A stretch of 64,000 bases of DNA, from NCBI GenBank assembly GCA_042571725.1, contig JBHPFN010000004.1, positions 507 to 64,506 on the forward strand, given 5' to 3'. The translations under genes were made by a program, and so were the position numbers. This document shows, piece by piece, positions 2 through 49,041 of this stretch. The DNA is from Candidatus Omnitrophota bacterium (GTDB taxonomy: Bacteria; Omnitrophota; Gorgyraeia; VGKH01; JBHPFN01). Positions within the stretch are counted from its first letter, which is position 1. The number at the start of each line of letters is the position of its first letter. The notes beneath the pieces were generated by a model. The model had not been told where the DNA came from and did no database searches. It saw only the letters and a program-made list of their open reading frames with translations.

Positions 2-3000
2 TCACCAACAAGGGATACTCGGGATTCGCCGCAACAAGGCGGCGGCGCAATGTTTGTTTCGTTTTGGCCGCTGTTACTGCTAGGCGGCGCAGCACTTGCC
101 GGTGCGCATTTGTTTGGGGCAGAATGCTTAGCTTACGCGGGTATCCCATTCTTAGCAAAAAAGGGTTCTGGTGGCAGAGCTAAGGCAAAAGGCCTGCTGG
201 GTAGGGGATGGGAAAGGGTTACTACCTTCTTTAGTCCTCCCAATATAGCGCAGGAGCGAAGCAGTGATCAGATTGAAGAGCGTGAACTCGAATTAAGAAA
301 TCTAGATGAAGGCGAAACCATTACGCTGAAAGATGGGAGTAATAAAAAATATAGATTTACTTTATTGAAAAAGCCAAAAGGAATGAGAGGAGTTTTATGC
401 TACGATCCCTATCTCGACGGTGACGAAGACAAGATAATGTATTTTGCAAAGGCAAGGGATTTAGATGGCGGAAGAAATGTCCTTCTTCTGTTTAATCTTC
501 AGGCCTCTCAATTATCAGAAGAAGCATTGTCAGATAGAAGCCGAGAAAACATTGCTTTTTTGGCTAAAGTTAACCATCGTAATATTGCGCCTAACCATGT
601 TCTAAAAGACTCAAGAGGAGATATAGTAGTCGTGATTCCTTATTTTCCTGTTCAGGATCCAACACACCTACGCTTCTACCATAGAGATAAGGTAAGCCGT
701 TTTAAAGATGTTCTCTTTCGCTATTTAGCCAATTGCGACAGGATCGAAAGAGAAGACGTCATTAAGCTTCTGGATATGATTGTCGGTTTAGCTGATGCCT
801 TTATGTGTTTCATTGATGATCTTGAGGTTGTTCCGGGCGACTTTGATTTCTCTATAGATGAATCCGGCGTGATATTGTTGGTTCCTAATTATCAAGGGTA
901 CACTACGCTTGATTACCAACGTGACAAAATGGAAATAGAGAGAAAATTATTAGAAATCATGCATGGCTGCATAGAAGCGATAGAGCCATTTTTACCAAAC
1001 GAACCCCGCTATCATTCATTAATTCATCGAGCATTAGGTATCCTAAAAAACTACAGGTACTTTTGGGATAGGTCTAAAAGTAAAACTATTGGGGATTTAG
1101 TAGTTGATTTACAAAGTATGCGGGCTGATTTTATTGCTCAAGATCAAACTCCCGGAACTTTTGAACCAACCTATCATGATTTATTGGGACAAAGGCGAGT
1201 ACCGTGTAGGTTCTCATGGCAAGAAGACGAAAGTTTTGTAAGTCTTGAAGCCAAAAAAGCAGAGTCTTGGTGGGAACTTTTTGGCAATGCTAGCGCTCAC
1301 CAAAAGGAACGGGAGCTAGCAATAGCTTCTTCAGAGCTACTAAAAGTAGGCGTAAGCATTTCAGATTTTGTGAGAGGTAAAAAAGTTCTCTCTATTGGTT
1401 TTGGCAAGTGCGTTGGTGAGCTTGGAGTATTAATTGAAGAATATTCTGAAGATGCGTCAGGGATTGTGGGTATAGAGTGGGAGAGGGATTTAGTTGTTGA
1501 TGCGGCGCAAGGACTTTTTAATCGCTTCGCTGATGCTTCAGGAGATGGCGTCTATCGCCAAAGAGTTTTGGATAAGGTAAGGCTCTTTTGTGAGGATGCC
1601 GCTTGTCTAAATGAAATACTTGAGGATAATTCTGTCGGATTTATCTATGTGGCTAATATATTTGTTAATGATTTTCCGATTTCCAAAAATAAGAAACAGG
1701 CGATATTTGAAGAAATGATGAGGATCTTGGAAGATGGGGGAATTGTTGTGTTGATCACTACGGATGATTGGGTAAAAGAAAAGCTAAGAGAAACAGGTAC
1801 TGTTATTTGCGAACAGCAAGCGCTCGTTGTCTATCAGCATTCTAATCAATCAGCGCAAGAGACAAAGCCTGCTTTGGATGTTGCGCAAATGGTTTCTTCC
1901 TGGTGGCCGATGGTGATTCCGCTTGGCCTTGGTCTGTTAGAGAGCTTTACTGGTGGAATCACAGAAACAACCGGGCTTGCTGTTTTCGTGGGGATTCCAT
2001 TTTCACTCGAGAGAATACTCAATGGGGTTAATGGTATCCGCGGTTCGCCGTGGCTGCGCAAGCCTAAAAAGATCTTCCGCAATCGTTCCACCGCTATTAT
2101 CCTTGGCCTCTTAATTGTCCTCAACGGCATAGCACCCTTTCCCGGAAAACCCAGCATTGCCCAAAACGATATTGCCACTTTGGTCTTTATCATCAATCTC
2201 ATCGCAGGAATTATGTTTCTTCCCTTGATGCAGTTTATGTTTAACGGCAGATTCATCGCACTTTCAAAAGATTTAACCAAAAAACAATGGCGTGACATCA
2301 TAGGGCACGGGTTGCTCATCCAGGGCGTTGTCTTCCCCTTGTTTTTATTGGGCTTAGGGCTTGTTTCGGAAAAAACCTTTGTCATTGTGACTCGTCTACA
2401 GCCATTTCTGATATTGTTGCTGGGTATCCTATGGTTTAAAACGGATACGTTCGCATGGAGGAAATTAATCGGCTTTGTTTCTGTAACGGGCACCATGGCT
2501 CTATTTCTTGCATCAAAGACTTCCGCAGGCAGTAGCCAGATGTGGGGGGTTATCTTTGTGGTATTGGCAACCATTGTGGGATCGGTTGCGAACTGCTGGA
2601 GAGGAAAGATAGTAAGGGTCATCGAAAATGGCGCCTTGATTACAGTCTTATCGATTTGGATCGGTGTAGTTACAGGGGTGCTCCTTGCGGGGCTGGCGCT
2701 CATCGGCTATGCTATCGGGTTTGCGAATCCAGATATTCTTAATGAGCTTTTTTCAATTCATCATGTGTACCCGGTGATATCTTGGCAATTGATTGTGTAT
2801 TCCCTCATCTTAGGCTGGGGCCTGTTTCTTAATTTTGAAGCGCACGAACGCAATCCAGCGGCCCCGTTGACAAATTTGCTTTCGTTTGCTCCGGTTGTCA
2901 CGATGATTGTTTTCCAGGCTATCCATCGGACTATGCCAGTATCGAATGAGATTGTAGTTGTCGCAATTATGATTCTCGGGACGTTCTTGATAAAGCGGTC

Positions 3001-6000
3001 TTATCGGGGCAAAACCGGGCTGGGCAAGGGCAACAACGAAGTTGATTTACACATTCACTCAAAACCCTATTCTCCCGGAGCAACGCTGCTCTCCGAAAAG
3101 ATTGTGGATGAAGCAGTTGAAAGGGATTTAAAGGCCATTGCAGTTACCGATTACCATTCTTTGAGAGGCACGGTGAAAGCAATACGCTACGTTGAAGAAA
3201 AGGGATTGAATAGTAAGATTGAAATCATCCCCGGCGTTGAAATTGAGACAAAGGAAGGCTATCGTCTGCTGGTTTATTTTCCTGATGTTCAACGGTTTAG
3301 AACTCATTTCGATAGAATTGAAGCCACCATGCCCGAGATGGAGAAGAGGACCGCGCGAGAAGTTTTTCGGTGGGCCAACACTTCCGGTTTTGGCGGCGTT
3401 GCCATTTGTTCCCTTTCGGGCGAAGGTCAAAAACCGACCAACGAGCGAGAGATGGTTAAGCTCTTACGTCAAGGGTGTGACGGTTTTGAAGCAGATCACT
3501 CCTCATCCCGCAGCCGCAGCGTAGTTAATACCTTGATGATTCTTAATAACTGGAACTTTTTCTACCCTACTTTTGCTAAGATTATCACTGTGGGCAGCAA
3601 TTTTTATGACGGTCGTAAGCAAGAAATCGGCCGCGGATGGCCCGGTAGAAGAGACTTTAGACATGCGTACAGTTGGGGTTATGATTTAGTTGAGGATCTT
3701 AAGGCTCTGGCAAACCGTAAGATTCTTCAGCAAGAGCAGAGTGATGGCACGCTAGCCTTAGGCCCTGAATTCGATCTGCGTGAGTATCCTTATGTGTTAA
3801 ATTCTGCCAGACAGGTTGAGAGAAGTGCGACGCCGATGATTGACCTGCATGTGGTTTCTTCCTGTTCCCACAGGAAGCGTCCCTCGCCATTAGAGATTAT
3901 CGAATCAGTCTCACGCAGGGGAGTCAAAACAATTGCCTTTGCCGACATAGGGACTGCGCAAGGTGCCATAGATACAAAAGAGCTCGCTGCGGAAAGGGGA
4001 GTGGAGGTTATTCTCGCGGTTGAGATTCATACCAATGAGCTTGAGCATCTTCTTGTGTATTTTATTGAAGGAGCGCAGCGCATGTCTGCTGAGGATATCG
4101 AGATTCTCATTCAGCAATCCAAGAGAATGACCGTTGAAGAGACGATTAACTGGGCGCGTGCCTTAGGCGGCATTGCTCACCTGGCGCATCCGGGATGGTA
4201 CGGAGAACCGTTTGATATAGAGAGGTCCCGAGCCTGGTGTAATGCAGGTTTAGGCGGTTTTGAAGTTGACCACGGATTTTTTAGATCAAGAAATCGGCTG
4301 CCAATTATGGTGTTTCTTTTTAAACACAACCTATCAGAGATCTGGAAAAACCCCGATGGTTCAAGCCTTGATTTAAAAACCATGACCGTCGGCAGCGGCG
4401 GCAAAGGCATACCCTGCCAAGGCTGGGAACATAAAACACAATGGCCTGATGCTCCTTCGTACGGGCCTGGGGTTGTGGAGGCATTGAAGCGCAAGGCAGC
4501 AATGCAAAACGCACACGCAACAGAGAGCACAGCTTTGCCGGCAGCAGGCCAATCCGGAACAGGTGATGGAGTAAGTTGCTTTATGGGGATGGGATCCGGC
4601 GCATTAGACACCATATTAGGGACGTTTCTGAATTTGTTCAGAGAACTGTCCCTCATAGGGACACACTTAGCTTTAGCATCAGAAACGTCCCTAATTAGCT
4701 TTGGCGGGATGGTGTTGGGTGTGGCCATTGATGCTGATGACGAATGGAGAGAAGAGCTTGATCGAATAAATCATGAATTCAAGCAACTACAAAAGGAAGA
4801 AGGATTATCAACAGAAGAATATGTAGACAGAGCAAATATTTTAATCGTGGAGCTTGCAGAATATGCCAAAAAAGCTTGCATGGATATAAATGCGTTTCCT
4901 CTTTATGAGAAACTCCTTCTTTCAAAGCAAGAAAGGGTAAAGGCTGATCCGAAATACTATAGAGAAGGAAAAAGAATAGATCCTTATGAAGAAATTGCCA
5001 AACCGCTTGGAAGAGGTCCGATTTTTGTGTTTATTAATCCTTACTCACGCCCTTACGGCTTTTGGTTACCGACAAATATTTTCCATCTTTCTAATGAGTT
5101 AAGAGCTGCAGGTATCGCTCAAGGTCATTCATCTATTGCTTCTGGCGATGTAGTCAATGTATCTTCGGCTTCATTAGATGATGAAATAAGAAAAATGCGA
5201 AACTATTATGGAGACAGAGAATTGATTTATGGAATATCGACTAGTGAAACATTATATCCGGCATGCATGGAATTTGTAAAAGCAATAAGAAGGAATGAGC
5301 CAGAGTCCTTGGTTGTTCTAGGCGGACATATGGTTAATGCTGACCATGAAAACGTTGCCAAGCATGCAAGGCAACTAGGGGTAAATGTTTTAGTCAGAGG
5401 AGGAGCAAGGAATCTCCCTGAGTTAGTCAAGGCATTAATCGGCCAAAAAGCAAACGAGCCTATAGGAGCAGATTTAAGGAAATTTGTAGAAAGTCAACAG
5501 GGAGTATTGTTGCTTGCTGGCGGTAAAGAGGCAGAAGGAAGATATTATGATATTGGAAATGAAGCAGAGACCTATCCTGACTTAGAAAGCAGAGTCTTGC
5601 ATCCAAGCGTTGTAAGGTATGCGGCAGAACTTTCTGCAAAAGGTGCTTATCTTAAAGAAGAAGACAGAAGAACAATGACTATCCAGATAACTTCGGAGAT
5701 TGGATGTCCTTATGGGTGTGATTATTGCTCCGGTCCCTTTAGCAAGGTTAAATGTGTAAGCGCAGGAAAATTGATTGCTGAAATAGAAGAGATTATAGAC
5801 ATTCTAGGCCTTGAGAATGACATCGTTATTGAGCTTACAGGTGCAGACACACTGATCAATAAAAAACGAATAAGAGAGTTCTTAGATATTATTTTAACTG
5901 ATAAGAGGCAGCTTATTCCTTATCTGAAGAGATCAAAATGCACTGCATCTGTACGCTCATTCTATGTTGAAGGAAGATTGGATGAAGAGTTGATAGATAA

Positions 6001-9000
6001 GTTAGCCCAAGTTTTTGGCGTTGTGCAAATTGGAGTTGAAAGCGGTGACGATGAAGAACTCGTACGATGGGGCAAGGGGGTAACATGGAGTCAAACAGAA
6101 GCTCTTTTTGAGGCAATTGAGAGAGCAAATAAGAAACACAAAACATCTTTTTCAGTTGATATGTATGCAATTGCATCTGGACTAGAGACGCGGCCACGTA
6201 ATTTAATTAACTCATTAGCAAATCTCCTCTATGCCTTTTTGCGATATGATTGCATCGGAAGAACCTATGTCATGTCTGTAGTGATACCTGATATTGGATC
6301 AAGAGTTTTTGTACGACTAACTGACGATGATATGAGAAGGATGGATCCTGATTACAGAAGACAGTACAGAATACTTGAAGAATTAGATTGTTTCTTATAT
6401 GAGCACGTTCTTCCAAGAGACGCATTGGTAAGAAGCTTTTTCGTAGGTAAGAAGCTAAGAGAAGAAGTTCTTGGGGCTACGCGCAATGAAGGATGCCCGA
6501 GAGGCTTGGAAGCAATAAGTATTTATGAAGCGCTGTGGAATTTTGGTTATTTATGCGCAGAGCAACGATTAAGACTTACCAAAGAAAAAGAAGAAGGAAC
6601 TAATTGGAATGAAGAAAAACAAGCAAGGTTAGATGAGTTAATAGATGTAATTGATCTTTTTAATGAAAAGCTTAGCTTTATGAAAAGAACCGGACTCAAA
6701 GACAAATATGATGCCATAGTTGAAAAATATTCTGAGCCAGATGAAAGCCAAGGTCGTGGCGGCGGGGCGTTTATTTCTTCCTGGTGGCCAATATTGATTC
6801 TTGGTGGCACGACTCTTGTCGGAGCGCATTTCTTAGGCGTGCAGGGTGCGGAATCAGCTATGATGTTACCGATATTTTTGAAACTCCGACGCCGCGGGCC
6901 GCCCTTCGGCAGGATACGGCTTGCGTTTAATCGAGCAGTCGAAAAAATAAAGAATGAAAGAGATGAGTTAGTCAGAAAAGGATTTATCGGCAATCAGTAT
7001 TGGAGAGATAGAGATAATATTAAAGATGAATTGATGTTGGTCTTTTTTGTAACCGCTGCATACTCATTTTTGTTTAAATACGTACTTGAGGTTTTTGGCG
7101 GCGCCCCTCCGAGCTTATCGATTGCCAATTACATCATTATTGCCATTTTTATATTTCTAATCACTCTTAGCGCCTCAGTAGGACACCCGATTTTCCATAT
7201 CATTCATGCCTATCGAATTAACAAACGGAATAAAAAAGCCGGAATAGAGTTACCGACGGCCAAACAGAGAATCTCTGTTCTTAAAAGACCATTCATTGTT
7301 CATAACACAATAACTGTTCTTGCCATTGCCGCCGTAATGATCGTTAACAACGATATTCTACAAGGAGTATTTGTTTTTGCAGCGATTATTCATTTCTGGA
7401 GAGGAGCCGCAGCGCGTGTAAGTACAGATGGCTACGCAATAGAATCGCTAAAGAAACACGGGCAAGCTTACGACATGTTAAGAGACGGATTTGAGGATGT
7501 GGTAAGAGATGTGCGCTTAGGCGTAATGCAGCGTATCGGGCTTCTTTTTCCGATTGCAATTGAGGCAGAAGGAAGAAGGTGGCAGGTCCACCCTGGGACA
7601 CTCGGGCCGTTTGCAGAATATGTTACCTCGCGTATCGACGCATTATTATCTCGAGGAGATCGAGGCAGCGGTGAACAAGATTTCGACGTGGCGCCCCCTG
7701 TCCCGAGCGCAGTCGAGGGGCTCGCATCAGATGAGTCAACGATGGATACTCGGGATTCGCCGCGGGAAGGCGGCGGCGTAATGATGAGTATGTGGGGGCT
7801 GTTTACCACGCTTGCCGGCCTTTTCTTCGGTGGGATGGTGTTGGGTGTGGCTGCAGATGCTGATAACGATGAGAGTGCCACAGGTAATTTTTGGGCTGAA
7901 GAGGAAGACGTTGAGCTCACAAAGGTCATCACGCTGGAATTATATCTTAATCCTCGATTTAGGGAACTGAGGGGTTTATTAAGTTCTTTAGGTATAGGCA
8001 GAAACTTTAACAAAATACATACAGGTTTAAGATTTGCTCGATTTCTACTTCATGAGGAAAAGGCTCATCCTCACGTCAGCGTAAACGCACTATTATCGCG
8101 CGCTCGAATGCTCAGGATATTTATTGAAATGATGAGGGAGTATTTCTCGGCAGAAGAAATGGTTGAGATTTTTGCGCTCTCATACACGGGATTATTTTTC
8201 AGCCATCAAGTTGAAGGCGCAGAAGAAGCAATTTCGTTACATGATAATAAGCTCAGAGAGACTCTTTATCCTAATGAAATCTTTAATTTAGGGTTAGATG
8301 AGAAGCAATTTGTGCCAATGGCATTAGTGGTGTTGAGTTGTCTGGAAAGATTGGAAAATCCGGATAATGAGACTACTCCCGGAGTAGAAACGCCTACACG
8401 AAGGGTTGTGAGAGAATTCATTGACACGACACTTAATGAGTATATCCCGCGACTTCAGCAAGAGAATCAAAATATTCACCAGGGAGCACCGTTTTATCCT
8501 CCTTATCTAGGTAGTGCAGGTTGGCTCATTGATTGGCAGGAGGGCGCTCGGGAGCGTAGCGCATTATTGGGAGATCACTGTAGATATCACGCCTATCAAT
8601 TTGGATATAGTGCTATAAGGCAGATAGGCTGGGGTTTTAGCGGAGGGCGGATCTGGAATATGATTTCAACACACAGGCACGACTATCCAGCCATTGTTGG
8701 GTTTATTGAGAAGCATTGCAGGCTTGCAAGCGGCAGGATTAGCCTTAGGTTAATTAAAGATGTATTTCAGGGGGGTAAGGCATTTCCAAACCTACCAATG
8801 CTTGAGGAATTTCTCACCAATCGGCCTACCACGACCATCGATGAGCTTATGCAATGCAGCAGCGCTCCATTGATAACACCCTATCACATAGATACCAATA
8901 GGGGTGGAGAAATATACGTACCCATTGGATTTCAGCTTGGGAGGGAAGGCTTTGGTATGGAACATATGAAATCTAAAGTTGCTCAAAGGAGAATTGATCT

Positions 9001-12000
9001 CCAAGAGCTATTAGGAGAAATGTGGTTAGATACTATAATTAAAGTTGGAGTGTTACCTATTATTGGAATGGGATTGCAAGTTCCCGCGGCACAAGGAGAA
9101 AGGATGTTTTTCTTTGGGAAGATAAATCCTCATAGAGTTAGATGGCTACAACAGACCAGACAAGAGATAGGTAGGTTTCAACCATTAAGCGATGAAACCA
9201 TAGATCTATTGGGAAACATTTACTTGCAGGTTGTTGTTGGCCTTGTTGAGGATGAGCACGTCAGAGGCTATAAGGGGAATGTAATAACCGCTTTTCCGAT
9301 TGTTGAGCCCCAAGAGGTAGCTGAGCAGGTATTGGTCAGCGTAAAGGAATTAGATGGTAGAAGGGCCTTGAGTCGACAAAGCATTTATCAGCACATAGTA
9401 CAGCCGTGTAATAGACTTTTTAGGAGATGGGGTGTTCCTTTTGTGATACGACGGCATAAAGAAGGTAAAAGAAAATACACGCTTGTGCCTACTAACGCTT
9501 CAACTGGTAGCGGAATAATTGCTTCGATGTGGGGAATCGTTATTTTACTTTCCGGTTTTTTCTCCGGTGGCATGGTGTTGGGGGTGGCAGAGGGTTTAGG
9601 TTGTAGTGCATCCTTACTGCCGCCGATGTATACCAATGCGCAGGAGGGTAATTTTGTTGGACGCTATAGCAAAATTATTGAGCAAGAAAAAGGCCGAGTT
9701 ACCGCAGATGATGTTGAAGAATTGCGCCGATTCAGCCGTCTCATACCAGAGTTGCTCACTTTAAAATCACTTCGAAGTTGCGATGGTTCAGCATTAGAGG
9801 TTTTTGACCTACTTGAGAACAATGAATTTGTGGTGAGGTGGCACGATGCAGTAAGCATGGATGCCGATAGAGGAGATTCTCATTGTTATTGTAGCGTTGT
9901 CATCGCAGGAGTGAGATTTATTCTGGATTTAACCGCTGAGCAGTTTGAAACCGCTCCTTCAGAGGAAGAAAAATATACATTTTTAGGTATTGTATTAATT
10001 CCCGCACGGGTTGCGTTTGAGCTTAGGGAAAGGCTTGATTTCTATTCTATGCCCGATGGTTGTCGAGGCTATACATCTACGTATGTTGATTGGAGGAAGG
10101 CTCAAGGTTATCGCGTTGAGTATGAAGAAGGCAACCCCGAACTCCTAGAAAATAGAAATCTAGCAGGGATGGTTTCTCTTATCTGTGCACTCGAGGATAT
10201 TGACCCCCGGGTAAGAGAAGCAGCCCAATCACTGCTGGATAATTCGCCCTATGCATTAATAGGCCCCTATAGGAGACGATTGCTGGATCCGGGAGTGAGC
10301 TGGACGATAAGTGAGTCCGTTGCTTCTTTTCTGCTTGATGAATATTTTCGATATGCAGATAATTTTGATGTTCCATTGCCTTTGTTTGTGGTTGACGGTC
10401 CTTCCGGGATTGGTAAGACCACTACAGCGCAAGAGATGGTCAGGGTCACAGGAAAAGGAAAAATAAAATACCAACTAGTGTATTTAAACCTCGATATGTT
10501 TCTGAAGGATCAGGCGTGGCGCCATGAGATAAGAGATAAAATTGCCAGCGGAGAATTACATCCGGACGACTTTGATGAAAGGGATTTCTTTGATTACGAT
10601 AGGATTATTGCGATGTTAAGGGATATTGATGAGTTTCGTCGCTCAGGAGATGAAACCGGTGTGTTGGTGCTTACTCATGTGTGGAATCCCGAGAAAGGAC
10701 GATATGAGGATCTGCAGATTCCCTTGACAAGAAATACAGTTTTTCTTATTGACGGAAAGTATGCACATGAGAAAAGGCTTCGTCCCTTTTACGGCAAGCA
10801 TCCTTTTAAAGTCCGTTTAGACGAGGATGATGATTCGATTGGGAGGAAGTTTGAACACAGAGAACGCGCCAAAGGAAAAAGCGAAGAAGAGGTAGCCAAG
10901 CAGATGATATTTCATGATTTGGTTGTTTTACCTCACTTTAGGCGCTATGCCCAAGAGCCGCAAGAGAACCTTTTTGTCTTAAGATGTTCTCACGGAGAAA
11001 TCCCAACCGAGCCGCTAAGAGATGCAGATGTCGACAGCGTAGAGAGAGAATCCCGCGCTGCAGGCGGCGGGGCGATGATGTTGATGTGGGGGATATTTAC
11101 CACGCTCACCGGTCTTTTCTCTGGCGGGATGGTGTTGGGTGTGGCTGCAGATGCTGATGGAGGTAGAAAGGATGACGCCGTGCCGCCGGCGTCGGGGAGG
11201 GTTGCCAGACTTACCGATAGATTCCTCGGATGGTTGAATGAGCGGTTATTCGCACTACAGCGAATCATCGGCAGAAGACTTTCCGAAAGCCGGCGTTTAA
11301 CGGCAGTTTGGACCAATGAAGAGATAGCTTTAGAGGGTATCTTGCAATTTTCTCCAGCAGAATTAGAAGAGCAAAGACAAAATATCATTAATAGGTATAT
11401 AGTCCCGCAGCGCAGACTACAGTATTTACCGTACGAAAGTAGGCTGCGTGGAAGAAATAGATGGCGCTGGAATGATACGGTGTTCGTTGTTCTTCTTGAA
11501 GATGGTACACAGGTAACTGCGCACTCCAGCCATATCCGCGGAGTTCTTATAAAAGTTGTTCTAGAAATTGAAAATCGGATTCAGCTCGAAGAAAGAAAAC
11601 GGAGGCGTAAACTTTCTGATGATGAAAGAGAGGAGTTCATCCGTCAATTGACCCTTGTGGTGGCTTCCACCGATTACTTAGGAGAAGCTGTGGCTATTGT
11701 GGCGCGGCTTATGGGAGTACAGGCACAGATATTTCTTCCGCAATGGGCTTCACAGGGAACCATCGAAGCTCTCTCGCAATTCGGCGTATCCGTTGATAGC
11801 CATTTACCGGATTATGATGTTGCCAGCGCCCACGCACGCAACTTTTTTGAACTTCATGCCAACGCCATACTCATTGACGGCGCCGAAGACGAAACCAAGG
11901 CCCGGGGCGCAGCCATTGCCGCTATGGAGATGATGCACGAATGGCATAAGTGGATCGGCTACGAAACCATTAAGGCCATGGCGCGATTGATCGCCAAGTA

Positions 12001-15000
12001 TGAAAAAATGAGCCTCGAAGCAGTTATCCGAGAATATGATTACTCAGAACTTGCCCAGCGCTGGGAGGATCTAGAAGAACAATTGAAAAGAAGAGATCAC
12101 AGGCACTACACTTCTGTTAATGAAGATGTCACCATGCTTTCCAGCGCAGAGGCCCAGCCACTCCTTGAGGAGCTTCGGCAGGATGAGGAACTCCTCGTTG
12201 AGTTGGTTAGGCCTATCGGATTGGTACCGAGTCAATTCGTTGTTGTTGGCGGCACGGGATTGGACGCCGCGGGTACAATCGAAGGGCTCAGACGCGACAA
12301 TGTACCGGTTACTATCGTTGAGCCATCCGGAGCTAATCCGCTCTATTGTTCTTTAACCGGAAGAGAAGAAGGTGAGCCGCCGATACTCCTTAGGGCCTCT
12401 GAGACCAGCGCAATCGGTGTACGTGTGCGCTCAGTCGGTCATATGCCGCATGCGGTGCTTCGAAAGACACTTCATAGGGCCGTAACCGTAAGCGAAGAGT
12501 CTGTTGAAGAAATGAGAAAATTCTTAAGCGCAACAGGTCTCGATGTAGAAGGAACCGGCGCACTCCCGCATGCAGCGGTTGTTTTAGAGCGCGCTGATCT
12601 TTTTGACGATGATATCATTTTGCACGTGAACAGTTCGCGCATTGATACTGAGCTCAGTCAAGAAGAATTAGCGCATCCGAAGGCTAAGACGGTTTTCTTT
12701 AGGATCCACCCCAGACTCCAGGAACTTTGGCTTTTGGTACGAGGCGCTATTCGCGTTCCAAGGTTCTCAAGAATCTTCTTCCAAAGAATGCGATTTCAGA
12801 AAATCGGCGGCGAGCGACAACTGGCCCGCCAAGTGGCTGCTGTCTACGAAGAAACAATTCAAGATATTCTTAGGCGATGGGATGCTATCCCCGAAAAAGA
12901 AGAAAGACTGCGCGGTAGAATGAGGCAGCTGATGGGCTTGCTAGTGGAATTAGATATTACCGATTTAAGCGTATTTCGCCTACGCCCGCGCCATTGGATT
13001 TGGCTATACCAAAATACGGTTTTGCAAGGTGAACAGCCTGCGTTTGTCGCACAGGTACGCGAAAGGGTAGAGACCATCTGTAGGATCACGGAGGTGCAAG
13101 ATTTTACGTCATTAGCCGATGCCGAATTCGACGGTTACGGTAAAAAGCTTAAGTCTCTTGCCAGAGAACACAGCAAAACAGATTTTGTTCAATTAGAGCC
13201 GAAAGACTTGATTGATCTATTCGAACACTTCAGCGCAGGGCTACCCTACGATGCAAGGCAGTGGATCCGTCATGCCCTTGATCCGCTGCTCTGGGGCCGT
13301 ACTCAGAAAAACTGGGGAAGAGCCGAAGCAGCACGCGATGAGATTATAGAATCATTTAACCACGACCAGGAGGGCGTAGCCACCGCGTACTATGATAGGA
13401 GGGAGGCGGTGCCGATAGATAGGTTAGTGCCCACACAAGACTTGAAAGCGGAATTTCCGGGCGATGATCACGCAGGAATTGTTAAGAGATTGAGACGCGA
13501 CATCAAAGGAGGCCTTATCGTACCTATTACGGTTTTTGAAATACCGGGAAGTGATGATTATTTTCTTATGTGGGGTGGTCCTCGTGCGTTGGCCAAGTAC
13601 CAAGAAGGCCACGCCACCATAAATGCCTTTATTGTGAAAGTAGCATCGCCGCAAGAGCAAACGCTACAGTTCCTATCCCAGCAGATGCACCTGCGCTGCC
13701 AAGAGAAAGGATTGGCTTCAATTTTGGATCTATTCCCGGATAGTCCGACCAGATTCTTAAATAAAACCCTCCTCTATCCGCCAACCGCGCACCGTATAGA
13801 AAGAGCAATCGACAGCGAAGAAAGAGAATTTACACCGATGACGGACTTTCCTATAAGAGGCGCTCACGTGCGCATAGCTACGTTCAGGTCTGAGGTTCAG
13901 GGGGCGCCGTTAGTCTTTATTCATACCCGCAGAGCGGGAGATACATTGGAGATTTATTTCTCGTTGGCTGCGTTTATACTCTTTCGCCAGGTATTTTCTG
14001 AGTCGGCAAGGCAGGATGGCCTGGAGATGATTGTCGTGTATCTCTCCGAGCGGCTTATCCGGGAGAGGTCGCACACAACGGCCTCAGTTGCGTTTGAGAC
14101 ATACAGCCAGAGATCTGCCCGTATGAAGGAAGCCCGCAGAAGATTGAGACTATTGACCCAGAAGGCAGAGAAGCGAAATCTTACCGGCGACTGGAGAGTG
14201 ACCGGCTCACGCGGAGATCGCGAGCAACCGGAATCCATGCCGGTGGAAGAGGACGATTGGTCAGTGGTCATGCATGCATATTTGATAGTGAGAAATGCGC
14301 ATCTTTCGGCGGACCTTCCTGCCAATAGACATGAATACGAAGACGTTTTGGCCCGTGTAACCAGAAGTCTTTCTGGCCGCCAATTTACTATCACTGTGGA
14401 TGGCAGGGTGATCTTGGCGTATGATGCAGGGTTACAACAAGCTCCGGTCGTTCACGATCTTTGGTTGACGCAAAGGGGAAGAAAAGTATTCTACTCCGCG
14501 GCTGGCATACTCTTTTCAGAAGAAGAACCCTTTATCACGATTATCGGCTCTGCAACACCAACCGATAGATCTGAACATGATACTGATGAGTTTCCAAGAC
14601 TCGTCGATGATAACGAAGCAACTGATGCTACCCCTCCGGAGAGACCGGAGGGAGATCAACCCAGCGGCGGTGGGGCCAGCTGCTTTGTGGGAATAGAGTT
14701 ATTCCAGTTAAGTCTGTTAGGACAGTTAATACAGTTCGCATTCGGTGGGCTGGTGTTGGGTGTGACGGTAGATGCTGATAACAATAATATATCTGAAGGT
14801 CCGCCTGAGCATAGATGGTGGGATGAACAAGAAAGTCCAGCTTTTGATGTATTAGAAGCACAGCTTGAAGTCCAGCGTAGGATTATGGAAAGACTTCAAG
14901 AAAGAATTAATGGTGCAATTCATGGCAAATTTAGATTAAAGTCGACTCCCTTTGTGTGTGCAATCTTTAACATAGCACACGCAGATGCTTTGCGAATACA

Positions 15001-18000
15001 AGTTTTTCTAAGTGAGGAAGAAAGAAGCCGCGACCCTGAATTAGCAGATGCCCTGGCAAGTTTGGGTATGAGTAAGGGGTGGATTGGAATAATGGATATA
15101 GTAATAGCTACAGACATAAAAATGCAACCTCTATTGGTCATTTCGGAAGTATTGGTTGCAAAAGCTTATTGGAGACTTAGAGATAGAGATAAACGAAAGA
15201 TTAAGCGTTGGCATAAATTACTTGTTAGCTACTTTGAGGCGATAAAAGAGGAAGTCGGCGTAGCAGAGGTTCTGAAACCGACCAATGGACAAATGAAATC
15301 TCTTCCCGCTCTTCAAAGGGAATTTGAGGAGAGAGCTCATTTACCAGATGCAATCGATGAACTTTACGGCAGGCCTTCTCGCGAATACAGAGATGAAGAA
15401 AGAGAAATTTTAATTTGGAAGTATGGCGGTTGTACGGTGAAGGCGGATTTTTGGGTTTATAGAGAGGCATTCCTCGTATCAGACAGTTCAACAAGGGATA
15501 CTCAGGATTCGCCACAGAAAGGTGATGGGAACGGCATAATAACTTCGATGTGGGCACTGTTTACTACACTTGCCGGCATTTTCTCCGGTGGGATGGTGTT
15601 GGGTGTAGCAAGTGGGTCAGATGGAGTTGGCAGTCCCTCATTGGTTTCCGAGAGGGGAGATTCACCTTTATCCATTTCGGAAACAAAACGCAGAGCATAC
15701 GATGAGCTCGCGAGAAGAAGAAAATATGATCTTGGCGAAAGACCTGCAATGAAAGAAGCAGCAGCATCAATTTTTGGCCAAGCGATTCCGCTCGATGAAG
15801 TAAGGGGCAGCAAAGTTTTGGACGTGGCTATAGGAGCGGGTTTGATATCCGGATATGCTGCAGAAAATGGTGCCAGAGAAATTGTAGGCGTAGACATATC
15901 GTCCGGAATGCTTAAATGGGCGGATAGCAACCTCGCCCCATTTACATCAACCGCTACAATACGTCTGATTAAAGGAGATATTTTAAGATTGGCCGATTTA
16001 TTCAGAAAGGAAGATGGGCAAGTAGAGAAATTCGAAATTATCACTATAGGCAATGTGCTTTCTTTTTATCCTCCTAAAGAGAGAGTAGCAATTTTATCGC
16101 AGGCATTAGAATTGCTCGAGGAGGGCGGATATATTGTTCTTCTTTATAGAAGCATGGATGAGGTGAAAAATCCTCTCGCAACTCTTGTTTATCGTAGGCC
16201 CATGATACCAAAAATCACACCAGATGGGTACGTTGAAATTCTGGAAAATTTAGCAAGAGACTTAGGATATACTGTTGAGGCAGGGTTTTATGCTGCCAAC
16301 TATGAGACAGATACGGATTATAATCGTCAGTTAAGCGATCTTGAGGTGGTAGTAAGTCACACTATGGTTCTCTGGGCAAAAAGAAAACCTTTGGCAGCTC
16401 GAAACATCGGAGATTTACCTACACCCGCGCAACCCGGCGGCGACGACGCGAGCTGTTTTATGGGAATGGGGTTATTCCAGTTAGGTTGGTTAAGTCAGTT
16501 ATTTCAGTTCGCATTTGGTGGGATGGTGTTGGGTGTGGCAGAGGGGTCAGGCTCATTTGAACAAGCAAGAGGATTTACATCGTATGAATACGAGAGATAT
16601 GGTTTGAACCTTTCCGATATACCAGATGAATTTGCGTGCGAGCCGCTCGCTATTATTAGAATAAGAGAGAATCTATCGCAGAGAAATTGGTTCTGGAGGC
16701 ACGCGACGCCCAAGATTCGAGAAAGAGCAATAGAGCGTATTAAGACATTGATGAATAAATTAGAAGCATTGCAAAGTTTAGAATCATTCAAAAATATTAT
16801 CGGAGACAGGAAGATCGTTGCTATTTACACGGCTGGTAGTTATCCATGGCATGATGACCCAGGGGATATAGATGTTCATTTCGTCGTTAGAGGGGAAAGA
16901 GGATTTGAGCTGATATATTTATCTGCAGAGGAAGCTGATGAACTCAGCATTGCTTTAGAATTCACCGGTAGAAAAATGACAAGAATTGCATTGCAGATAT
17001 TTGGTACAACCAATTTAGAAAGGGCGGCACAAGACATAGAGATCAAAGATGGAGGAAATCTTCAAAGAAAATTATTGACTATATATGGTAATGCTGTGCA
17101 ATTAGGCGGATTAGATTTATTTGAAAATAGTCAACCACCCGCTAATGACTTTCACATTTTAGCCTCCTGCATAAGAAGTTTAGCTGTTGGTTCCGTGAGA
17201 GAAAAACGTCTTCGGGAAGCAGAAGCTATAGAAGATTGGTTGGCAGAAGGGATAACCACCCCGAAGATGGGTGTGGCAGAGGTCGGTGGTTTTAGTAGTG
17301 GGGTAGACATAATTACGATTGCTAACCAAGTAGCACAGCGAAGCGGTCATGCGGGAAGCGTGGCTTTAAAAATTCACGCCTTTTTAAACAGAAGCAACCC
17401 AGATATACATAGACATGCTGTTTTACTTTCGCGTGCCTCGAAAAGTTCTGTGCCTGGCATGAAAAGATCTAAGGTTCCACCTAATCCTGTTATTAGTATT
17501 GCCTCGGCAAAATATATGCTTCGCGCAGCCGCAATGAGGGCCGGTAAAACGAAATATTATGATTCGTCGATTCCAGAAGAATCTAGCAACCCAGAAGATT
17601 CGCATTCTGGCGGTGGGGCGATGTTTATTTTTATATGGCCGGTGGTGATTCTTGCAGCTTTACTTGCTGTGCCGACGATTGCGTGGGCGGGTGAATTTGG
17701 AAAGCTTATTGATACAGCCAATTCATTTTATCAATGGTATGCAGCTTTATTATCAACGCATACTCTTATAGTTAAGATTTTGACCTCAGCGATATTGTTG
17801 GCTATCGGAGATTTCATCGCCCAATGGACCGAGAAAAAATCCCTACGATCATTAGATAAGTGGCGTCTGATTTATATGACAATCCTGGGTGGCGGTTACG
17901 GTATCGTATGGCACGTCCTGTTTATGCTGCTTGAGAAAGGTTTTCCTGGTAGGGATCTTCTAAGCGGAGTCTTACCGAAGCTATTAATTGATCAAGGGCC

Positions 18001-21000
18001 TTTTACAATGTTTTTTCATTTTCTTAACTTTTTTATGGTTGGGTTATTCGGAGGCGTTGGGAGCTTCTTTGCAACCGGAGTCTTTACATTTACATTTGAA
18101 AAGTATAAAGACACGATAAGGAAGGATTACAAACTAGCTTTATTCACAAATTGGCTGTATTGGCCAACCATTCAAGCGGTAAGTTATCTTATTATTCCTC
18201 TTGATTTCCGAGTCCTATGGGTGAATATTGCTTTTATTTTTTGGGCACCTATTCTTTCTAAAATAGGTCATGGCGAATGGAAAGCATTCACACGAAAACT
18301 CGCAAGAAATCCTCGTTCCGGCGGTGGGGCGATGATGTCAATATGGGGATTATTTACCACACTTGCCGGCCTTTTCTCCGGCGGGATGGTGTTGGGTGTG
18401 GCCGCAGATGCGGGTGATGTGAGCGCCACAGCTGATTCGCACGATTATCTGATCCTTGCTGAAGCGCAAAGGTTATTTGAAGGGGAAGGGATTGCGCACC
18501 GCGTAGAAGAGGTTATCGCCTTCACTGGTCCGCAACGGGCATTCATTGAATACGCCATATCAAAATTGAATCAAGGTTATCAATTAAGTGATGTTGTCTA
18601 TCTGGTCGAATCGGTCCGGCAGACAAGTTTTGCGCACGTTGAGGAGTTATTATCAGATGATAGGATTATTTGGTATGCCAATCGACCAAAGGCTACAATT
18701 GGCACCATTATATGGCATACCGTGAATTGCGCGTATCGGGACAATATCCATCAAGCCCATACACTGATGTATGAGTTAGGTATCGCCCCGAGTTGCCTAA
18801 AGGGAATCATAGATGCCATCGGTTTCATAGGTATTGAAGACGTTCGCTTATGGCTAACGGGTCGTGAGTTTCCAATCCGTCCGAGTGAGATCTTTAGAAT
18901 TGCGCACCTTCAGAAACAGTCATCTATGGAAGAGGTGAAAAAGGCTTTAAGATCAGGCACTGAATATCTCCGGATACAGGATGACATGACTGAACCACGA
19001 TGCTTTTCTTCGATAGAAGAGGCAATAGAAGTTCTTGGTCACGAAGAATTGAAGGCGCTGAGAGTTAGCCCGCAGAGGCCGCTAAGAGTTTCGGATGTGC
19101 TTTATGTTGTTGCTGTCCTAAAAGAATATGGGGCTGATGAAGTCAATTTTGCCATGTCGTTTGGCGTAGATCCATGGAAGTTACAGTATGTTTTAAAAGG
19201 CTTGAGAAGCGATCGAGAAAAATGGTTATCTTGGCTTCAGGAAAGAGAACGATACGGACGATACAAAGTAACTTTAAATCGAGCCGCTCAAAGCCGCCGC
19301 GCTCTAGAAAGCTTTCGGACGGCAGAGCAGCATCGCCGGGAACAAAGAGGTTTTCGATTACGGCTATTTGACTTTGAGGCTCGGATTTATCCATTTTCGG
19401 ATTATGACCCCCGGGCAAAAGCTGATGCGGATGAAGATTTCGTATTAGCCCTTTATCCGAGCGGTTCAGATTCTTTAAGAAGCCCAAAGAAGAAAACAAG
19501 AAAGATAGGTTTTCATTATCCGCACGGCACGATAGGCGGTATGCGGTTTAAGATCATCAATAATGAAATTATTGTTTGTGACGTTCAAAGCGACATCCAG
19601 GAAGATCTTCACCGACGCTATAAATATTGGTATACGATGATTCTCGTGGTGCTTGAAGATTTTGCAGCTGAATTTAGTATCACTCGCATCATCGTGCCAC
19701 CAGCGTATGCTCAATTCAGATTATGGGCAGAGCAACTCTACGGCCCGAATCCTTTAACAATGTTTTCTTTTTATGCACGAGGATATCCTGCTGGAGATTA
19801 TTCACTTCGACAAATGCCCGACGGGGCTATGCATGGGTTAGTCGCCATGCCCTTTGCGTGGACCAAAGGGATTAACGCAAGAGACGAGCTTGATGTTTCA
19901 ACCGTGGAACGTTGTTTCTTTGAACTTTTGGAAAGAGAAATAGGTCAGTCAGCGAAAGAAGAAGCGGTAAGAGGCGGAGGAGCAATGGTTTCGATGTGGG
20001 GATTGTTTACTACGCTTGCCGGCCTTTTCTCCGGTGGGATGGTGTTGGGTGTGGCAGGCGGGCTGGATGAAGCTCGTTCTTCCACACCGGTGGAGACAGA
20101 GAAGAGCAGATCGCAGGTGCTATGGAATGTGGCAGAAAGATTGGGTTCTTTGACTTCTATTGAAGAGAGAGGTGCTTGTGAGGATGCATTTGCGGATGCG
20201 CTAAAAACTGCTCTTGCGAGAAAAGAGGCAATGAGATTACTTGATTTTATAAGGTCTAGAGCAAGAAGAGAGCCAGACGAAAACCAGCCTTGTCCAGGTT
20301 TTTATTATGTTCGTCAAGACTCGCAAGAAAATCTCGTGTTAGCTCGATTTGCTGAAGGTGACTTTCTGGCTGCTATTTTAGGCAGCAAGTTTGCACCTCC
20401 CGGCAATGAACAATCTGTGTGGTATGGCAATGAGGCAAAAGACATCATGCTCTATACAAATGTTAACAACAATGGCTACATCGTAGTTTTTCCTAGTGCT
20501 GCATTTAATGCATTAGCTAATCAAGGCCAAGCAAAACATGTGACTGGTTTACCAGATCTAGAAGAATGGCACTATTTCTATGTTAAAGACGATTTGCCCA
20601 TTTCAGGGGAAACTACACCACTAATTTTTATAGGCACAGGACTGAGCGAGAAGTTAGAAGCTGCACAAAGCGAAGATGCACAATTAAGAGAAAAATTGGA
20701 GGCCTTAAGAAAACAAGTTCAGATTGAGGTCTTAGATCTTACAAAACAAACCATGGTTGATAACCTAGAGGCTGCACTTGCGCGTCATGGTTTCAAATTT
20801 GTGGGGAAAAAGTTCTGGCCGAGCTGGAAAGTTATTATTTACAATGTTCTGCAGGTTCCAGAAATGAGCGAGATTACAGAAAAAATATTAAGATCAGAAG
20901 GCGAAGACAGTGCCTCTGTTTCCTCGCCAGGAGGAGATCAACCCACCGGCGGCGGGGCATCCCTCGCATCAGATAGGCTAACAGATGATCGAATATTCTT

Positions 21001-24000
21001 ACAAGCTGTTAGGGATGCTTTACATGCACGACCTTTTGTCCCAGAACAACTTATTCGTGCTCTAAAGCGCGATCCAGAAATCCGCAGATTATTTGAGACG
21101 AAAGCAAAATCCTGGATTAGTCAAAGAGTTCGGGCAACCTTAGAAGCACGTCACCCAGGAGCCGTGAAACAGTGGGTTTTGGACACTCTCGAAATACATA
21201 CTCTAAGAGTCATGCATCAGTTTGAGCGCTATTTAGCAGCGGAAGAGCTGCCTTCAGGCGCAGATCTTAGCATGTTCAGATTGCTGTTAGCGCTACACGA
21301 TATTGGTAAGCCGCTTACAAAAGGTGATGAAGATACTCGTAAACAATATGTGCACACGCAAGATACTATTAAAGAATTGCGGCATAAACTTCCTTTGCCC
21401 GCAGAGCAAATTGATTTAATGATGGCTTTGCTTGATGGAGACCCTCTTGGTTTGTATATGCAAGGATCTACAGCAATAGAAAAGACCAGGACAACTATTA
21501 TTGGGATGAACAATAGAGTTAAGTATCCATTAGCAGACTTCTTTAGACTACTTACTCTCTATTATCAATCCGATACACTAAGTTACACTTTGGATGCAGG
21601 GTATGATTCTGATTGGCTGGCGGGACTCTTTGTTTTCGATATAGAACATTCAAGGTTTGTTTTTGATGATGAAGCGGGAAGGATGAAATTTTCAGGAGAA
21701 AAAGAAAGCAGATTTCGAGCTTTGGAAGAATCGATTGTTAGTTTAAATGTCGGGCATCGGGAAATCTACCCAAAAGGCGGTGGGGCGAGCTGTTTTGTGG
21801 GAATAGGGCTATTTCAGTTAGGACAGTTAAGTCAGTTAGGTCAGCTTGCCCTGAGTGCAGTCGAAGGGTTATTTCAGTTTACATTTGGCGGGATGGTGTT
21901 GGGTGTGGCCAGCGGGTCAGATGAATCTCGTTCCTCCTCGCCGGCAAGAAGAAACAGGAGAAATGACGATGCTAAAAGGAAGCTAAGGGAAGCTTTTGAG
22001 AGAGGGGAAGATATTGTCATAGCGCTTTCAGATAGAACACCACAAGCAAAATTGTTTGCATTTGACTGGGATGGCATTTTTGCAAAAGAGAAGGGTTATT
22101 TTGAAAAAGCCTGGGCAGCTTTAATAGTTATGATAAAGAACAAAACAGAAAATATTAATGCGGGGGAGCTCAGCCCTGAGCAGGTTCAAGAAGGTGAAGT
22201 TTTTAGAAGGGAAACAAGAGGCATGGAATACGCTTTACGCTTCGATCGACTAAGAGCAATGGCCTTGCAGTCTGGAGCGGATAGATCTCAACTAAGAACT
22301 GATCAAGAGTGTGCAGATATATTTTACGAAATAATTATTAGGCTCGCTCAACAAGATTTTGGAGAAGATTTAGAGGATTGGATCTATCCGGAATCAAAAG
22401 CATTTTTAATAAATTTAAAAACCGATCATCCAGATAGGTTAACATATGTTGTTACAGCAAATATTCAAAACGCCTTTAGGGAAATAATAGTTTCACGATT
22501 TAGCATAAAGAGATATTTTGACGGTATTTTTGGGCATCCTTTGAGATCAAGCCCGGATAACATTATAAATAAGACTACTATTTTAACCGAATTAAGACAG
22601 AGAAATGGTTTGGGTGTTAATGAGGTTGTATTTTTTGGTGACGCGGTAAGCGACATAAGATTCGGAAGAGAAGCAGGTGTAATCGTTGTTGGGGTAGCCA
22701 ATACTTATGAGAATGGTGTGCAATTAATAGATGCGGGAGCAGATATTATAGTTACTAGCCTAGCTCCTAGAAGAGAAATTATGCAACTATTAATGGATAG
22801 CTCCGCTTCTTCACCGACGGGAGAAGGTAAGCCAACAGGCGGAGGGGCGATGGTTTCTATATGGGGACTGCTTGCCACGCTCACTGGACTTTTCTCCGGT
22901 GGGATGGTATTGGGTGTGGCAGCAGATGCTAAAAACGATGAGGGCGCCGCAGGAGATTCAGAAACAGATACCGCCTCATCGTTGATGACAGTGCGAACGT
23001 TTAGCACCGGAAGGCATTCATTCCAAATTGTTTCAACTCCGCACGATACCGAATTTGGCATTGACTTATCTGTCCCCCATGAAGGCAGAGAGGAATGTGA
23101 GATTGGAATACATCTATGGAGATTTGCACGCTTGGCTGAATTTTTTATGGATTCTTACCGAGGTAATATGGAGAACGGGCCCGGCTATTTAGAACAGTGG
23201 ATGAGGACACACGATATAGTTACTACGTTTCTTGATGAAGACGAGCATCGCTTGCTGTGCGGTGAGAGATTGACATTGTTAGGGCGGCAGACAACTGTGG
23301 AAGATCGAGAACTTCTTGAAAAGAACTTTATTCCAGAATTATTAGGTTTTATTGTTACCATCGCAAGCAACGATGAAATAAGGGAGCAATTTCTGAGGAT
23401 TTGCAATGAGGAGCTGGTAAGATGGAGCGACCCATATATTCGAAGCCATTTTATTCCTGCAGAAATTCAAACTGTAATACAGCAATTTCAAGGCGGGCTT
23501 AGGGGGCTTGGTAACGTCAAGCCTCTTGATGTTGAAATAATGCAAGTTTTGAGAATTTTGTCGAGAAGAAGGCTACCGGTAAGAAAATTCTTCATGTACG
23601 AAAGAGACACTCGATGGGCTAGAGACGAAAAACTGCTCTTACCTCATTTGGAAGGCGAGCCTTATTATTTCGTCTTCCCAGGTGAAGGAGAATTTGATAA
23701 GGATGAGACCCATTTATTCGAGAGAGGTGCGGTTGTTTCAGGAATCGCGAGAACGCCGTTTTTAATTTATGCAGATTCGGTGGATGTACAGGAAGTAGAG
23801 GCCTTAGGTCGTTATGCGCGAGAAAATATTCCTGGATACGAAGCGCTCAGCGTGTATAGGCTACCGGCCGGCTGGGCCACATTTCAATTTGGAAATAAGA
23901 TTTACCTTTTAGATAACGCTCATCTTGATTGTGTGAGCGGATATATTCCAAGAAGATTTAGTCATCGTAACGAGAATATTCTTTTACTCGATCCTCACTA

Positions 24001-45854: not shown

Positions 45855-45883
45855 TTGACAATTATTTTCTTTCGCTGTAGTAT
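45855..45883 (+). promoter_or_regulatory. Candidate sigma70 promoter for the riboswitch-btuF transcript
   Basis: TTGACA (45855-60), 17-nt spacer, TAGTAT (45878-83). Confidence 0.4.
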
Positions 45884-45896
45884 AAAGCAGTTGTTC

Positions 45897-46075
45897 TTTT
45901 GTGAGAAACGATAAAGGGAATTCGGTGAAAATCCGAAACTGCCCCCGCAACTGTAAGTAGCAAAAGAAAGCGGTAGTCACTGGGATAGTCGGTTTAAAAA
46001 GCTGCTATTCTGGGAAGGCACGCTAGAGTCAAAACGCTACAAGTCAGGAGACCTGAAAGCAATCTCCGGGGTGAG
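45897..46075 (+). promoter_or_regulatory. Cobalamin (B12) riboswitch 1
   Basis: AAAGGGAA...GGTGAAAATCC...GCCCCCGCAACTGTAA core and B12 box aagtcaggagacctg at 46041-46055. Upstream of the btuF-like gene. Confidence 0.8.
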
Positions 46076-48731: not shown

Positions 48732-48764
48732 TGTTTTTTGACAACCTGGCTTATATTGGTGCTC

Positions 48765-48960
48765 GTAAAAGCTTAATAGGGAAACTTGTACTTGCCTGTA
48801 CTCATCGTGCTCAATAGTGAGTGCAGGCAGGAAGCAAGTGCGGTCCCGCCGCTGTACGAGGCTACGAACGTCACAAAAAAAAGCCACTACTCGCCATAAG
48901 GTGTGTGGGAAGGCAGTGATAAGTAGGTTTGATGCCTTAAGTCAGAAGACCTGCCAATAT
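48765..48960 (+). promoter_or_regulatory. Cobalamin (B12) riboswitch 2
   Basis: AATAGGGAA...GGTCCCGCCGCTGTA...GCCACT...GGGAAGGC and B12 box aagtcagaagacctgcc at 48939-48955. Upstream of the TonB-dependent receptor. Confidence 0.8.
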
Positions 48961-49041
48961 ATTAGAGAATGTTTCTTACAAAGCCTCGTGGATAGGCCTA
49001 AGGAGACTATAGATTTTTAAGGGTAAAGTAAAACAGGGTGC

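Follow-up and report, generated by a model that had tools for sequence, protein, structure and literature searches.

Evidence for DNA exchange among the repeated junctions of a truncated giant gene in an Omnitrophota bacterium

A single giant open reading frame (ORF) fills the first part of a 64,000-nucleotide stretch (the window) from a Candidatus Omnitrophota bacterium (assembly GCA_042571725.1, contig JBHPFN010000004.1, positions 507 to 64,506 of the forward strand). Along this ORF, 17 short junctions stand between some 19 modules that are unrelated to each other. Comparison of the junction sequences gives good support to the view that the copies have exchanged DNA with each other, with breakpoints in the two blocks that are shared between junction types. 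The favoured reading, which is given a probability of about 0.6, is that the visible sequence is a truncated giant gene of the kind known from Omnitrophota, with ~19 unrelated modules and 17 exchanging junction cassettes.

How is a junction built? A polar linker leads into a (K/R)xGGG(A/V) block, which is followed by a helix of type A, B, or C and then by another linker, made up of acidic or of small residues. In types A and C the helix ends in an invariant octapeptide, GGMVLGVA. Of the 17 junctions, nine are of type A, and types B and C account for four each; a polytopic membrane module follows three of the type-B helices, and the type-C helices are amphipathic and not plainly hydrophobic. 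Charge polarity is the same in all A and C helices, with an N-terminal flank that is neutral or slightly basic and a C-terminal flank of -1 to -5. The features of the giant ORF are as follows.

2-27502, + strand: giant ORF, 9,166 amino acids visible (ORF list and translation)
6-52, + strand: 5' element of J0, TRDTRDSP..GGGA
38-157, + strand: J0, type B; GGGA and a hydrophobic hairpin, then a basic flank (+5)
1883-1945, + strand: fourth type-B helix, without GGGA; precedes the EamA membrane module and shares a 16-mer with J3b
4562-4729, + strand: J3, long type C, ending in GGMVLGVA
6758-6829, + strand: J3b, type B; precedes a membrane module
7737-7852, + strand: J4, type A with core; TRD 5' element at 7737-7783
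9509-9589, + strand: J5, type-A variant with an EG-class 3' flank
11063-11146, + strand: J6, type A; exact 33-mer in common with J4, reaching into the ADAD flank
14651-14767, + strand: J7, type C; GDQPSGGGAS 5' element and core variant GGLVLGVT
15489-15610, + strand: J8, type A; diverged TRD 5' element and SGSD-class 3' flank
16436-16544, + strand: J9, type C; ends in TGGGTGTGGCAGAGG (16530-16544), EG-class flank
17255-17296, + strand: scar J9b, ACC ACC CCG AAG ATG GGT GTG GCA GAG GTC GGT GGT TTT AGT (TTPKMGVAEVGGFS)
17609-17686, + strand: J10, type B; precedes the Mpv17/PMP22 membrane module
18320-18403, + strand: J11, type A; exact 37-mer in common with J16
19973-20056, + strand: J12, type A; 3' flank nearest that of J13 (type C)
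20933-20965, + strand: scar J12b, GDQPTGGGAS, helix-less; lies in the linker that joins module 11 to the HD module
21776-21946, + strand: J13, long type C with core; SGSDESRSSSPA flank, last 60 nucleotides 85% identical to J15 (type A)
22838-22921, + strand: J14, type A; derived GTA variant and an exact 27-mer in common with neighbouring J15
24347-24466, + strand: J15, type A; GGGVMM 5' block nearest J4, 3' flank nearest J13
25118-25201, + strand: J16, type A, the last junction

Three smaller observations concern the junctions and their surroundings. Across the A and C junctions (7769-25201), K or R stands beside GGG on the N-terminal side and acidic residues on the C-terminal side. The type-C helix of J13 (21776-21910) resembles that of J9 (16436-16540) with its Q/L-rich heptads internally duplicated (LFQLGQLSQLGQL...LFQFTF). 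Just past the last junction, a 41-nucleotide direct repeat (25199-25239 and 25268-25308, 80% identical, 69 nucleotides apart) encodes NEAVQHQL and CEAVQHPL.

The mosaic structure of the junctions is seen where one flank stands beside different helix types. J0 (type B) and J4 (type A) have 41 of 47 nucleotides in common, and the similarity stops exactly at the first helix codon; at amino-acid-identical sites of this 5' flank, nine of ten codons are the same, against 3.3 expected (P=1.4e-4). On the other side of the helix, 85% of 60 nucleotides from the core onward are the same in J13 (type C) and in J15 (type A), with identical codons at eight of nine sites of the 3' flank (P=6e-5). The same holds for the flanks of J12 and J13 (six of seven codons identical, P=3e-3) and of J4 and J14 (seven of eight, P=0.01). 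Synonymous-site identity between flanks of different helix types is thus far above what amino-acid conservation demands. Flank identity ends at GGGA-M and resumes at the core, so that its limits are the blocks common to the types. Moreover, the nearest neighbour of a junction varies by segment: in J15, the 5' block is closest to J4, the helix to J11, the core to J14, and the 3' flank to J13. Two core haplotypes, GGC...GCC and GGT...GCA, each occur in both A and C types. As judged from these comparisons, the hybrid junctions, in which one flank stands beside different helix types, arose from junction-to-junction exchange.

A sequence-only reading of this DNA had proposed that the 5' and 3' halves of the junctions recombine independently. 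Their independent ancestry is borne out by the codon-level identity of flanks across helix types and by the segment-wise switches of nearest neighbour. Could the pattern reflect simple vertical divergence from one duplication, which the same reading had named as its competitor? When modules were compared with each other, the sole similarity was a faint match between two methyltransferases (E=0.011), and neither tandem duplication nor paralogy of modules was found. The pattern therefore cannot have come about by divergence after one duplication of a module with its junction.

The shared 5' elements on which the sequence-only reading was based are present as it described them. Exact copies of the element GGATACTCGGGATTCGCCGC (TRDTRDSP) lie at 13-32 and 7744-7763, and a third copy, at 15496-15515, differs from them at two positions; the helix that follows is of type B at J0 and of type A at J4 and J8. 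The three copies are spaced nearly equally, at ~7.7 kb, a spacing that is not unusual. The second element, GGAGATCAACCC-NN-CGGCGG-N-GGGG, occurs only at 14651-14675 and 20933-20957. Its first copy precedes a type-C helix, while the second runs directly into the module that matches HD, with no helix between. Might such similarities be due to chance, or to the assembly? The source is a contig of a metagenome-assembled genome (MAG), and the 15-mer of scar J9b, taken alone, is only marginally significant. However, shuffled sequences are expected to hold no match to either element, all shared words are in frame, and a stop-free frame of 27.5 kb cannot be an artefact. Repeats of 20-37 nucleotides also fall below the usual k-mer length of assemblers. 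It is therefore very hard to credit that the similarities are accidental or arose in assembly.

The second line of evidence for exchange is the 3' core. The last ~40 nucleotides of the junction are nearly invariant at synonymous sites, as seen at 18362-18402 and in 12 other junction cores (for example 4703-4726, 7829-7851, and 21887-21910). Pooled synonymous identity in the core is 0.73 against 0.29 expected; in the 5' half of the helix it is 0.46 against 0.26, and by this measure that half evolves like ordinary coding DNA under amino-acid constraint. The codons fixed in the core are non-preferred ones: Leu is TTG in 13 of 13 copies (background 18%), Gly is GGG in 12 of 13 (14%), Ser is TCC in seven of eight (10%), and Val is GTG in 11-12 of 13 (21%). 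The 20-mer GGGATGGTGTTGGGTGTGGC is exact in eight junctions, and exact words of 20-37 nucleotides are common to 34 junction pairs, every spacing being a multiple of three. Simple vertical divergence cannot produce such a core, and its cause is either gene conversion or selection on nucleotides. In the favoured reading, the near identity of the 3' core at synonymous sites reflects concerted evolution by junction exchange.

Selection on nucleotides would mean that the ~40-nucleotide core is kept for its function as RNA or DNA and not by recombination. It might be a hairpin or a G/U-rich ribosome-pausing element for co-translational membrane targeting, or else a signal for recombination or repair. 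The fixation of non-preferred codons across copies is consistent with this idea, as is the enrichment of G-runs in junctions. A 13-bp hairpin can form in nine of nine type-A copies, with 95.7% of cells paired compared with 41-49% when the partner is slid, and the third positions of its left arm vary solely by pair-preserving transitions. Nevertheless, covariation is not above the shuffle control, and single-sequence folds are no stabler than shuffles (z from -1.5 to +0.6). The type-C junctions have the frozen core without a complementary left arm, and the flanks common to different helix types are left unexplained. RNA structure was rejected as the cause of the freezing, since the hairpin has no support from covariation or stability and is absent from type C, which keeps the core. 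A nucleic-acid function in place of exchange is considered unlikely.

Two places in the giant ORF appear to hold remnants of junctions. Junction words of at least 13 nucleotides outside the canonical junctions were found at only three sites in the 27.5-kb ORF (nt 1893, 17268, and 20933). These sites share one reading register (P=0.005-0.02 in a synonymous-codon shuffle that keeps the protein sequence), and the one at nt 1893 is really the fourth type-B helix. The site at 20933 is scar J12b, which is identical to J7 at 25 of 27 nucleotides and sits in an S/G/P/D-rich linker before the HD module; the conclusion that it is a decayed, helix-less junction remnant is a solid one at the level of sequence. 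The site at 17268 is scar J9b. The sequence-only reading had noted here an exact repeat of the J9 end, TGGGTGTGGCAGAGG; the repeat is exact, but it lies at 17268-17282 and not at 17267-17281, one base away. Near-copies with one or two mismatches lie at the ends of J5, J12, and J14. The peptide of J9b, I-T-T-P-K-M-G-V-A-E-V-G-G-F-S, reads like a type-A helix minus its interior, followed by an EG-class flank, and its interpretation as a decayed junction is plausible but weak. Both scars fall in predicted coil in single-sequence AlphaFold2 models, which gives a weak hint only (pLDDT, the model confidence score, of 36-37). What the scars do not bear out is the proposal that they record deletions between junction copies. 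A crossover from copy to copy would leave a hybrid junction, and J12b and J9b are better described as decayed junctions from which the helix was lost internally.

Base composition adds a third kind of evidence. GC content at third codon positions (GC3) ranges from 0.285 to 0.52 among modules (chi-square p=8e-26), a wider spread than among the separate genes downstream. It is 0.33 in the first module, ~0.50 in the EamA and PHP modules, 0.285 in the radical SAM module, 0.48 in the PALP module, and 0.29-0.40 elsewhere. The mean GC3 step is 0.071 at junctions and 0.039 at random positions within modules (P=5e-5), and five junctions exceed the 95th percentile of the null distribution of steps. These seams suggest that modules of differing origin or age were joined at the junctions.

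Varying GC3 is also what would be found if the modules were once separate genes, each with a homologous N-terminal anchor or signal-like helix, that became joined by loss of stop codons, so that the similarity of the junctions is vertical. Gene fusion of this kind is in keeping with the unrelated folds of the modules, with the in-frame ATG that many junctions have right after GGGA, and with the GGAGG-like motif found upstream of the ATG in two junctions, J12 and J14. However, the type-C junctions and several type-A junctions have no Met after the GGG block. Internal translation starts at junctions were rejected: the GGAGG-like motif is present at only two of 17, and the codons for GGGA vary freely. 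No junction copy was found outside the giant ORF on either strand of the 64-kb window (nhmmer and six-frame hmmsearch), and no other gene there has such a helix. A type-A junction profile had no match among 1.84 billion representative proteins, although a single junction copy would have scored E = 1e-11 to 1e-15. Vertical inheritance, moreover, yields neither hybrid junctions nor a core frozen at synonymous sites. Fusion of once separate genes is thus quite improbable as an account of the junctions.

The gene that carries the junctions is incomplete in the window. Its frame is open at the left edge and ends at the stop codon 27500-27502, and its first ATG lies at 50. The giant gene must extend past the left edge, because the 5' flank of J0 begins upstream of that ATG. 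The visible part is 27.5 kb long (more than 20 kb), and at most ~9.6 kb more could lie on the contig. Pfam domains along it are EamA, two PHP, B12-binding with Radical_SAM, PALP, a methyltransferase, Mpv17/PMP22, HD, HAD, and Transglut_core. In about half of the modules no Pfam family scores above threshold, and many families occur along the chain with no single one dominating; relaxed thresholds added only weak methyltransferase and GNAT hints. The Kyte-Doolittle profile of the ORF has 40 hydrophobic peaks, among them the 17 junction helices. Proteins of the Mpv17/PMP22 membrane family are known mainly from eukaryotic peroxisomal and mitochondrial membranes, and the module at 17609-18325 of this bacterial giant protein matches the family with E=3e-13. 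The last module (26219-26641) is a transglutaminase-core, papain-like domain, in which the Cys, His, and Asp motifs look intact by eye (HCFNCAN, RHIFAEVF, FDVT). It had no match in a search of PDB sequences.

Are the junctions there to be cut? In a polyprotein, the conserved blocks would be protease sites, GGG|A of double-glycine type on the N-terminal side and GVA|(A/S/E/G) of small-x-small type on the C-terminal side. The conservation of the blocks and the independence of the halves would then reflect two separable sub-sites, J12b would be a working helix-less site or linker, and recombination would be compatible as the route of spread. GGG(A/V) and GGMVLGVA are indeed the most invariant peptide features, common to helix types that otherwise differ, and the uniform charge polarity of the A and C helices cannot be satisfied by an uncleaved chain of alternating transmembrane spans. 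The transglutaminase-like module, with the motifs read by eye, could be a candidate processing protease for the GG-containing junctions. In the Omnitrophota literature, C39 or S8 peptidase domains are proposed to cleave giant proteins; here, a Pfam scan of the visible 9,166 amino acids found neither, nor SecA_DEAD or dockerin domains. The C39 peptidases recognise an amphipathic leader. The region upstream of GGG is polar and disordered, unlike such a leader, and this counts against processing. Selection at the amino-acid level can give neither codon-level identity of flanks nor frozen synonymous sites. Processing as the main reason for the conserved blocks is possible but rather unlikely.

Relatives of the gene were sought in several collections. 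A query of 1,148 amino acids (J4 to J6) had no match in the protein index, not even the protein itself, and a query of 1,256 amino acids (PHP to radical SAM) returned PHP matches only, with at most 48 bits. A degenerate junction DNA pattern had a single chance match in the genome collection and another in the metagenome collection, the genes concerned being those of a LivH-like permease and of a DASS-like transporter; viral contigs gave no match. In the related Omnitrophota MAG GCA_042567325.1 (JBHPJR010000031.1), whose NrdJ is 81% identical, the genes from ROK to phosphoglycerate mutase are arranged as in the window. The contigs of the nearest syntenic relatives break ~14 kb downstream of the expected end of the giant gene, and the break in GCA_042567325.1 may be an instance of the fragmentation typical around such genes.

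Several points weigh against a truncated giant gene with exchanging junctions. A Sawyer-type run test gave a global P of 0.034 for J4 and J6; the global values, which range from 0.03 to 0.08, are marginal because the alignments are short (~100 nucleotides). Nucleotide-level selection could also freeze the core, as the hairpin pairable in every type-A copy illustrates, and differing constraints, not differing origins, could partly cause the GC3 differences. Of the scars, J12b gives only P=0.05 in a codon test against J7, and J9b alone is weak (4.8 bits, E=3, with a DNA hidden Markov model of the core). The uniform polarity of the A and C helices misfits a simple alternating transmembrane topology of an uncleaved chain. 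Finally, no relative of the junctions or modules was found in the collections searched, so that the gain, loss, or reordering of modules is unobserved.

By what route might the junctions exchange DNA? Short-tract gene conversion or unequal recombination is the probable one. Exchange would reinforce itself at the block of invariant amino acids, since it is there that identity runs longest without a break. A crossover between the in-frame repeats of 20-37 nucleotides would delete, duplicate, or join whole modules in frame; thus, the frozen 3' core would supply a recombination mechanism, and since all exact repeats are in the same frame, a junction can act as a cassette boundary. The GC3 patchwork with its seams at junctions suggests that the modules had differing histories when they arrived. 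The shuffling of whole modules is a reasonable inference. With lower confidence, each junction helix may act as a membrane tether for an enzyme module of cytoplasmic type, either monotopically or as part of a helix bundle. The octapeptide GGMVLGVA contains a GxxxG packing motif and a small-x-small end, and helix bundling and proteolytic processing are its candidate roles.

How does this gene compare with known giant genes and modular systems? Published Omnitrophota giants include a 'multi-enzyme metabolic cluster' class (bioRxiv 10.64898/2026.06.07.730766) and an 'Archaeovorin' type (bioRxiv 10.1101/2023.11.21.568195); see also Seymour et al. 2023 (PMC10066038). About 80% of these giant proteins are sequence singletons, and the newer catalogue sets its threshold at 10,000 amino acids or more. 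The likenesses are the phylum, an ORF that in its visible part exceeds 20 kb, the singleton status, the diverse and highly divergent enzyme domains (methyltransferase, GNAT-like, HAD, HD, radical SAM), and a hydrophobic helix every few hundred residues. Judged on its sequence, the gene belongs to this known class. It differs from the giants described there in that its helices are recognisable copies of one cassette, with a core frozen at the DNA level and mosaic flanks, and in the absence of SecA_DEAD, C39, and dockerin domains from the visible part. Term searches of preprints on Omnitrophota giant proteins, and the passages of further papers on giant ORFs and transmembrane helices, found no conserved linker, intragenic recombination, or fusion. 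Relative to the literature so searched, a junction cassette that recurs within one giant gene and evolves in concert is a new feature.

Outside the Omnitrophota, polymorphic toxins offer a parallel, in that a short conserved motif marks the point of cassette exchange. Recombination there replaces one C-terminal toxin cassette with another, as in CdiA, Rhs, and similar proteins (Zhang et al. 2012, PMC3482391). In both cases the modules downstream of a short, conserved, in-frame motif are unrelated, and the motif that is the recombination point in toxins is likewise proposed as such for the junction. However, polymorphic toxins swap only the C-terminal tip and have orphan cassettes and paired immunity genes, whereas the 17 junctions of the present gene are internal, toxin and immunity genes are absent, and the 36 kb downstream hold no orphan junction cassette.

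In modular polyketide and non-ribosomal peptide synthetases, recombination and gene conversion between repeated domains duplicate, delete, and swap modules. The gene described here is similar to them as a very long multi-module ORF with internal direct repeats that evolve in concert and permit in-frame module changes. What recurs in the synthases is a kb-long catalytic domain, within modules that are paralogous, whereas here a helix of ~30 amino acids, with an exact core of 20-37 nucleotides, recurs between unrelated modules. Polyproteins of flavivirus type carry internal signal or transmembrane segments between mature proteins (see PMC4410938), and there too hydrophobic helices with a small-x-small C-terminal motif separate the units of one long product. 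By contrast, the present gene is cellular and not viral, its modules are cytoplasmic-type enzymes, and cleavage of its product is hypothetical. The GlyGly-CTERM/rhombosortase signal has a glycine-rich motif directly before a glycine-containing hydrophobic helix, as the junction does, but the junction is internal and not C-terminal, and its C-terminal flank is acidic (-1 to -5) and not basic.

The genes around the giant ORF are ordinary bacterial ones, namely sugar transport genes and those for an ROK-family protein, a TonB-dependent receptor, NrdJ, and a TrpB-like enzyme. The NrdJ, GH36, TonB-receptor, and TrpB-like proteins of the window have identical counterparts among the NCBI proteins of 'Candidatus Omnitrophota bacterium', encoded on a contig of 73,627 bp; NrdJ is 100% identical to MFC1703510.1, and its best homologues are all from Omnitrophota. 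Rfam models match the window only at two cobalamin riboswitches (45878-46074 and 48740-48972), and none matches a junction. The riboswitches precede a BtuF/FecCD/ABC-like transporter operon and the gene for a TonB-dependent receptor, and a B12-dependent ribonucleotide reductase (51517-53781) is encoded beside them. Throughout the window (1-64000), every ORF of at least 300 amino acids is on the + strand and the GC skew is positive, which is consistent with a single replichore arm.

A bolder proposal, held here to be unlikely as it stands, is that the junction is a dedicated and portable in-frame joining cassette. Its core of 20-37 nucleotides would be actively kept identical by conversion or by nucleotide selection, and Omnitrophota could assemble, enlarge, and rearrange their giant multi-enzyme polyproteins through homologous recombination, with the same peptide acting as a membrane tether, a processing site, or both. 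If this is true, bacteria would have in the junction an equivalent of exon shuffling. Published work raises the questions of how genes of tens to hundreds of kb are put together and maintained in Omnitrophota and whether the product is a single chain or is cut. Apart from the bolder proposal, the present gene bears on both: its inter-module helices are not generic hydrophobic segments but copies of one cassette that evolve in concert. The exact in-frame DNA core of the cassette could mediate the gain and loss of modules, and its two invariant peptide blocks are candidate sites of processing or packing. Should each giant gene have a private junction sequence of its own, this would explain both their 10^4-10^5 codons and the near-universal occurrence of sequence singletons among them.

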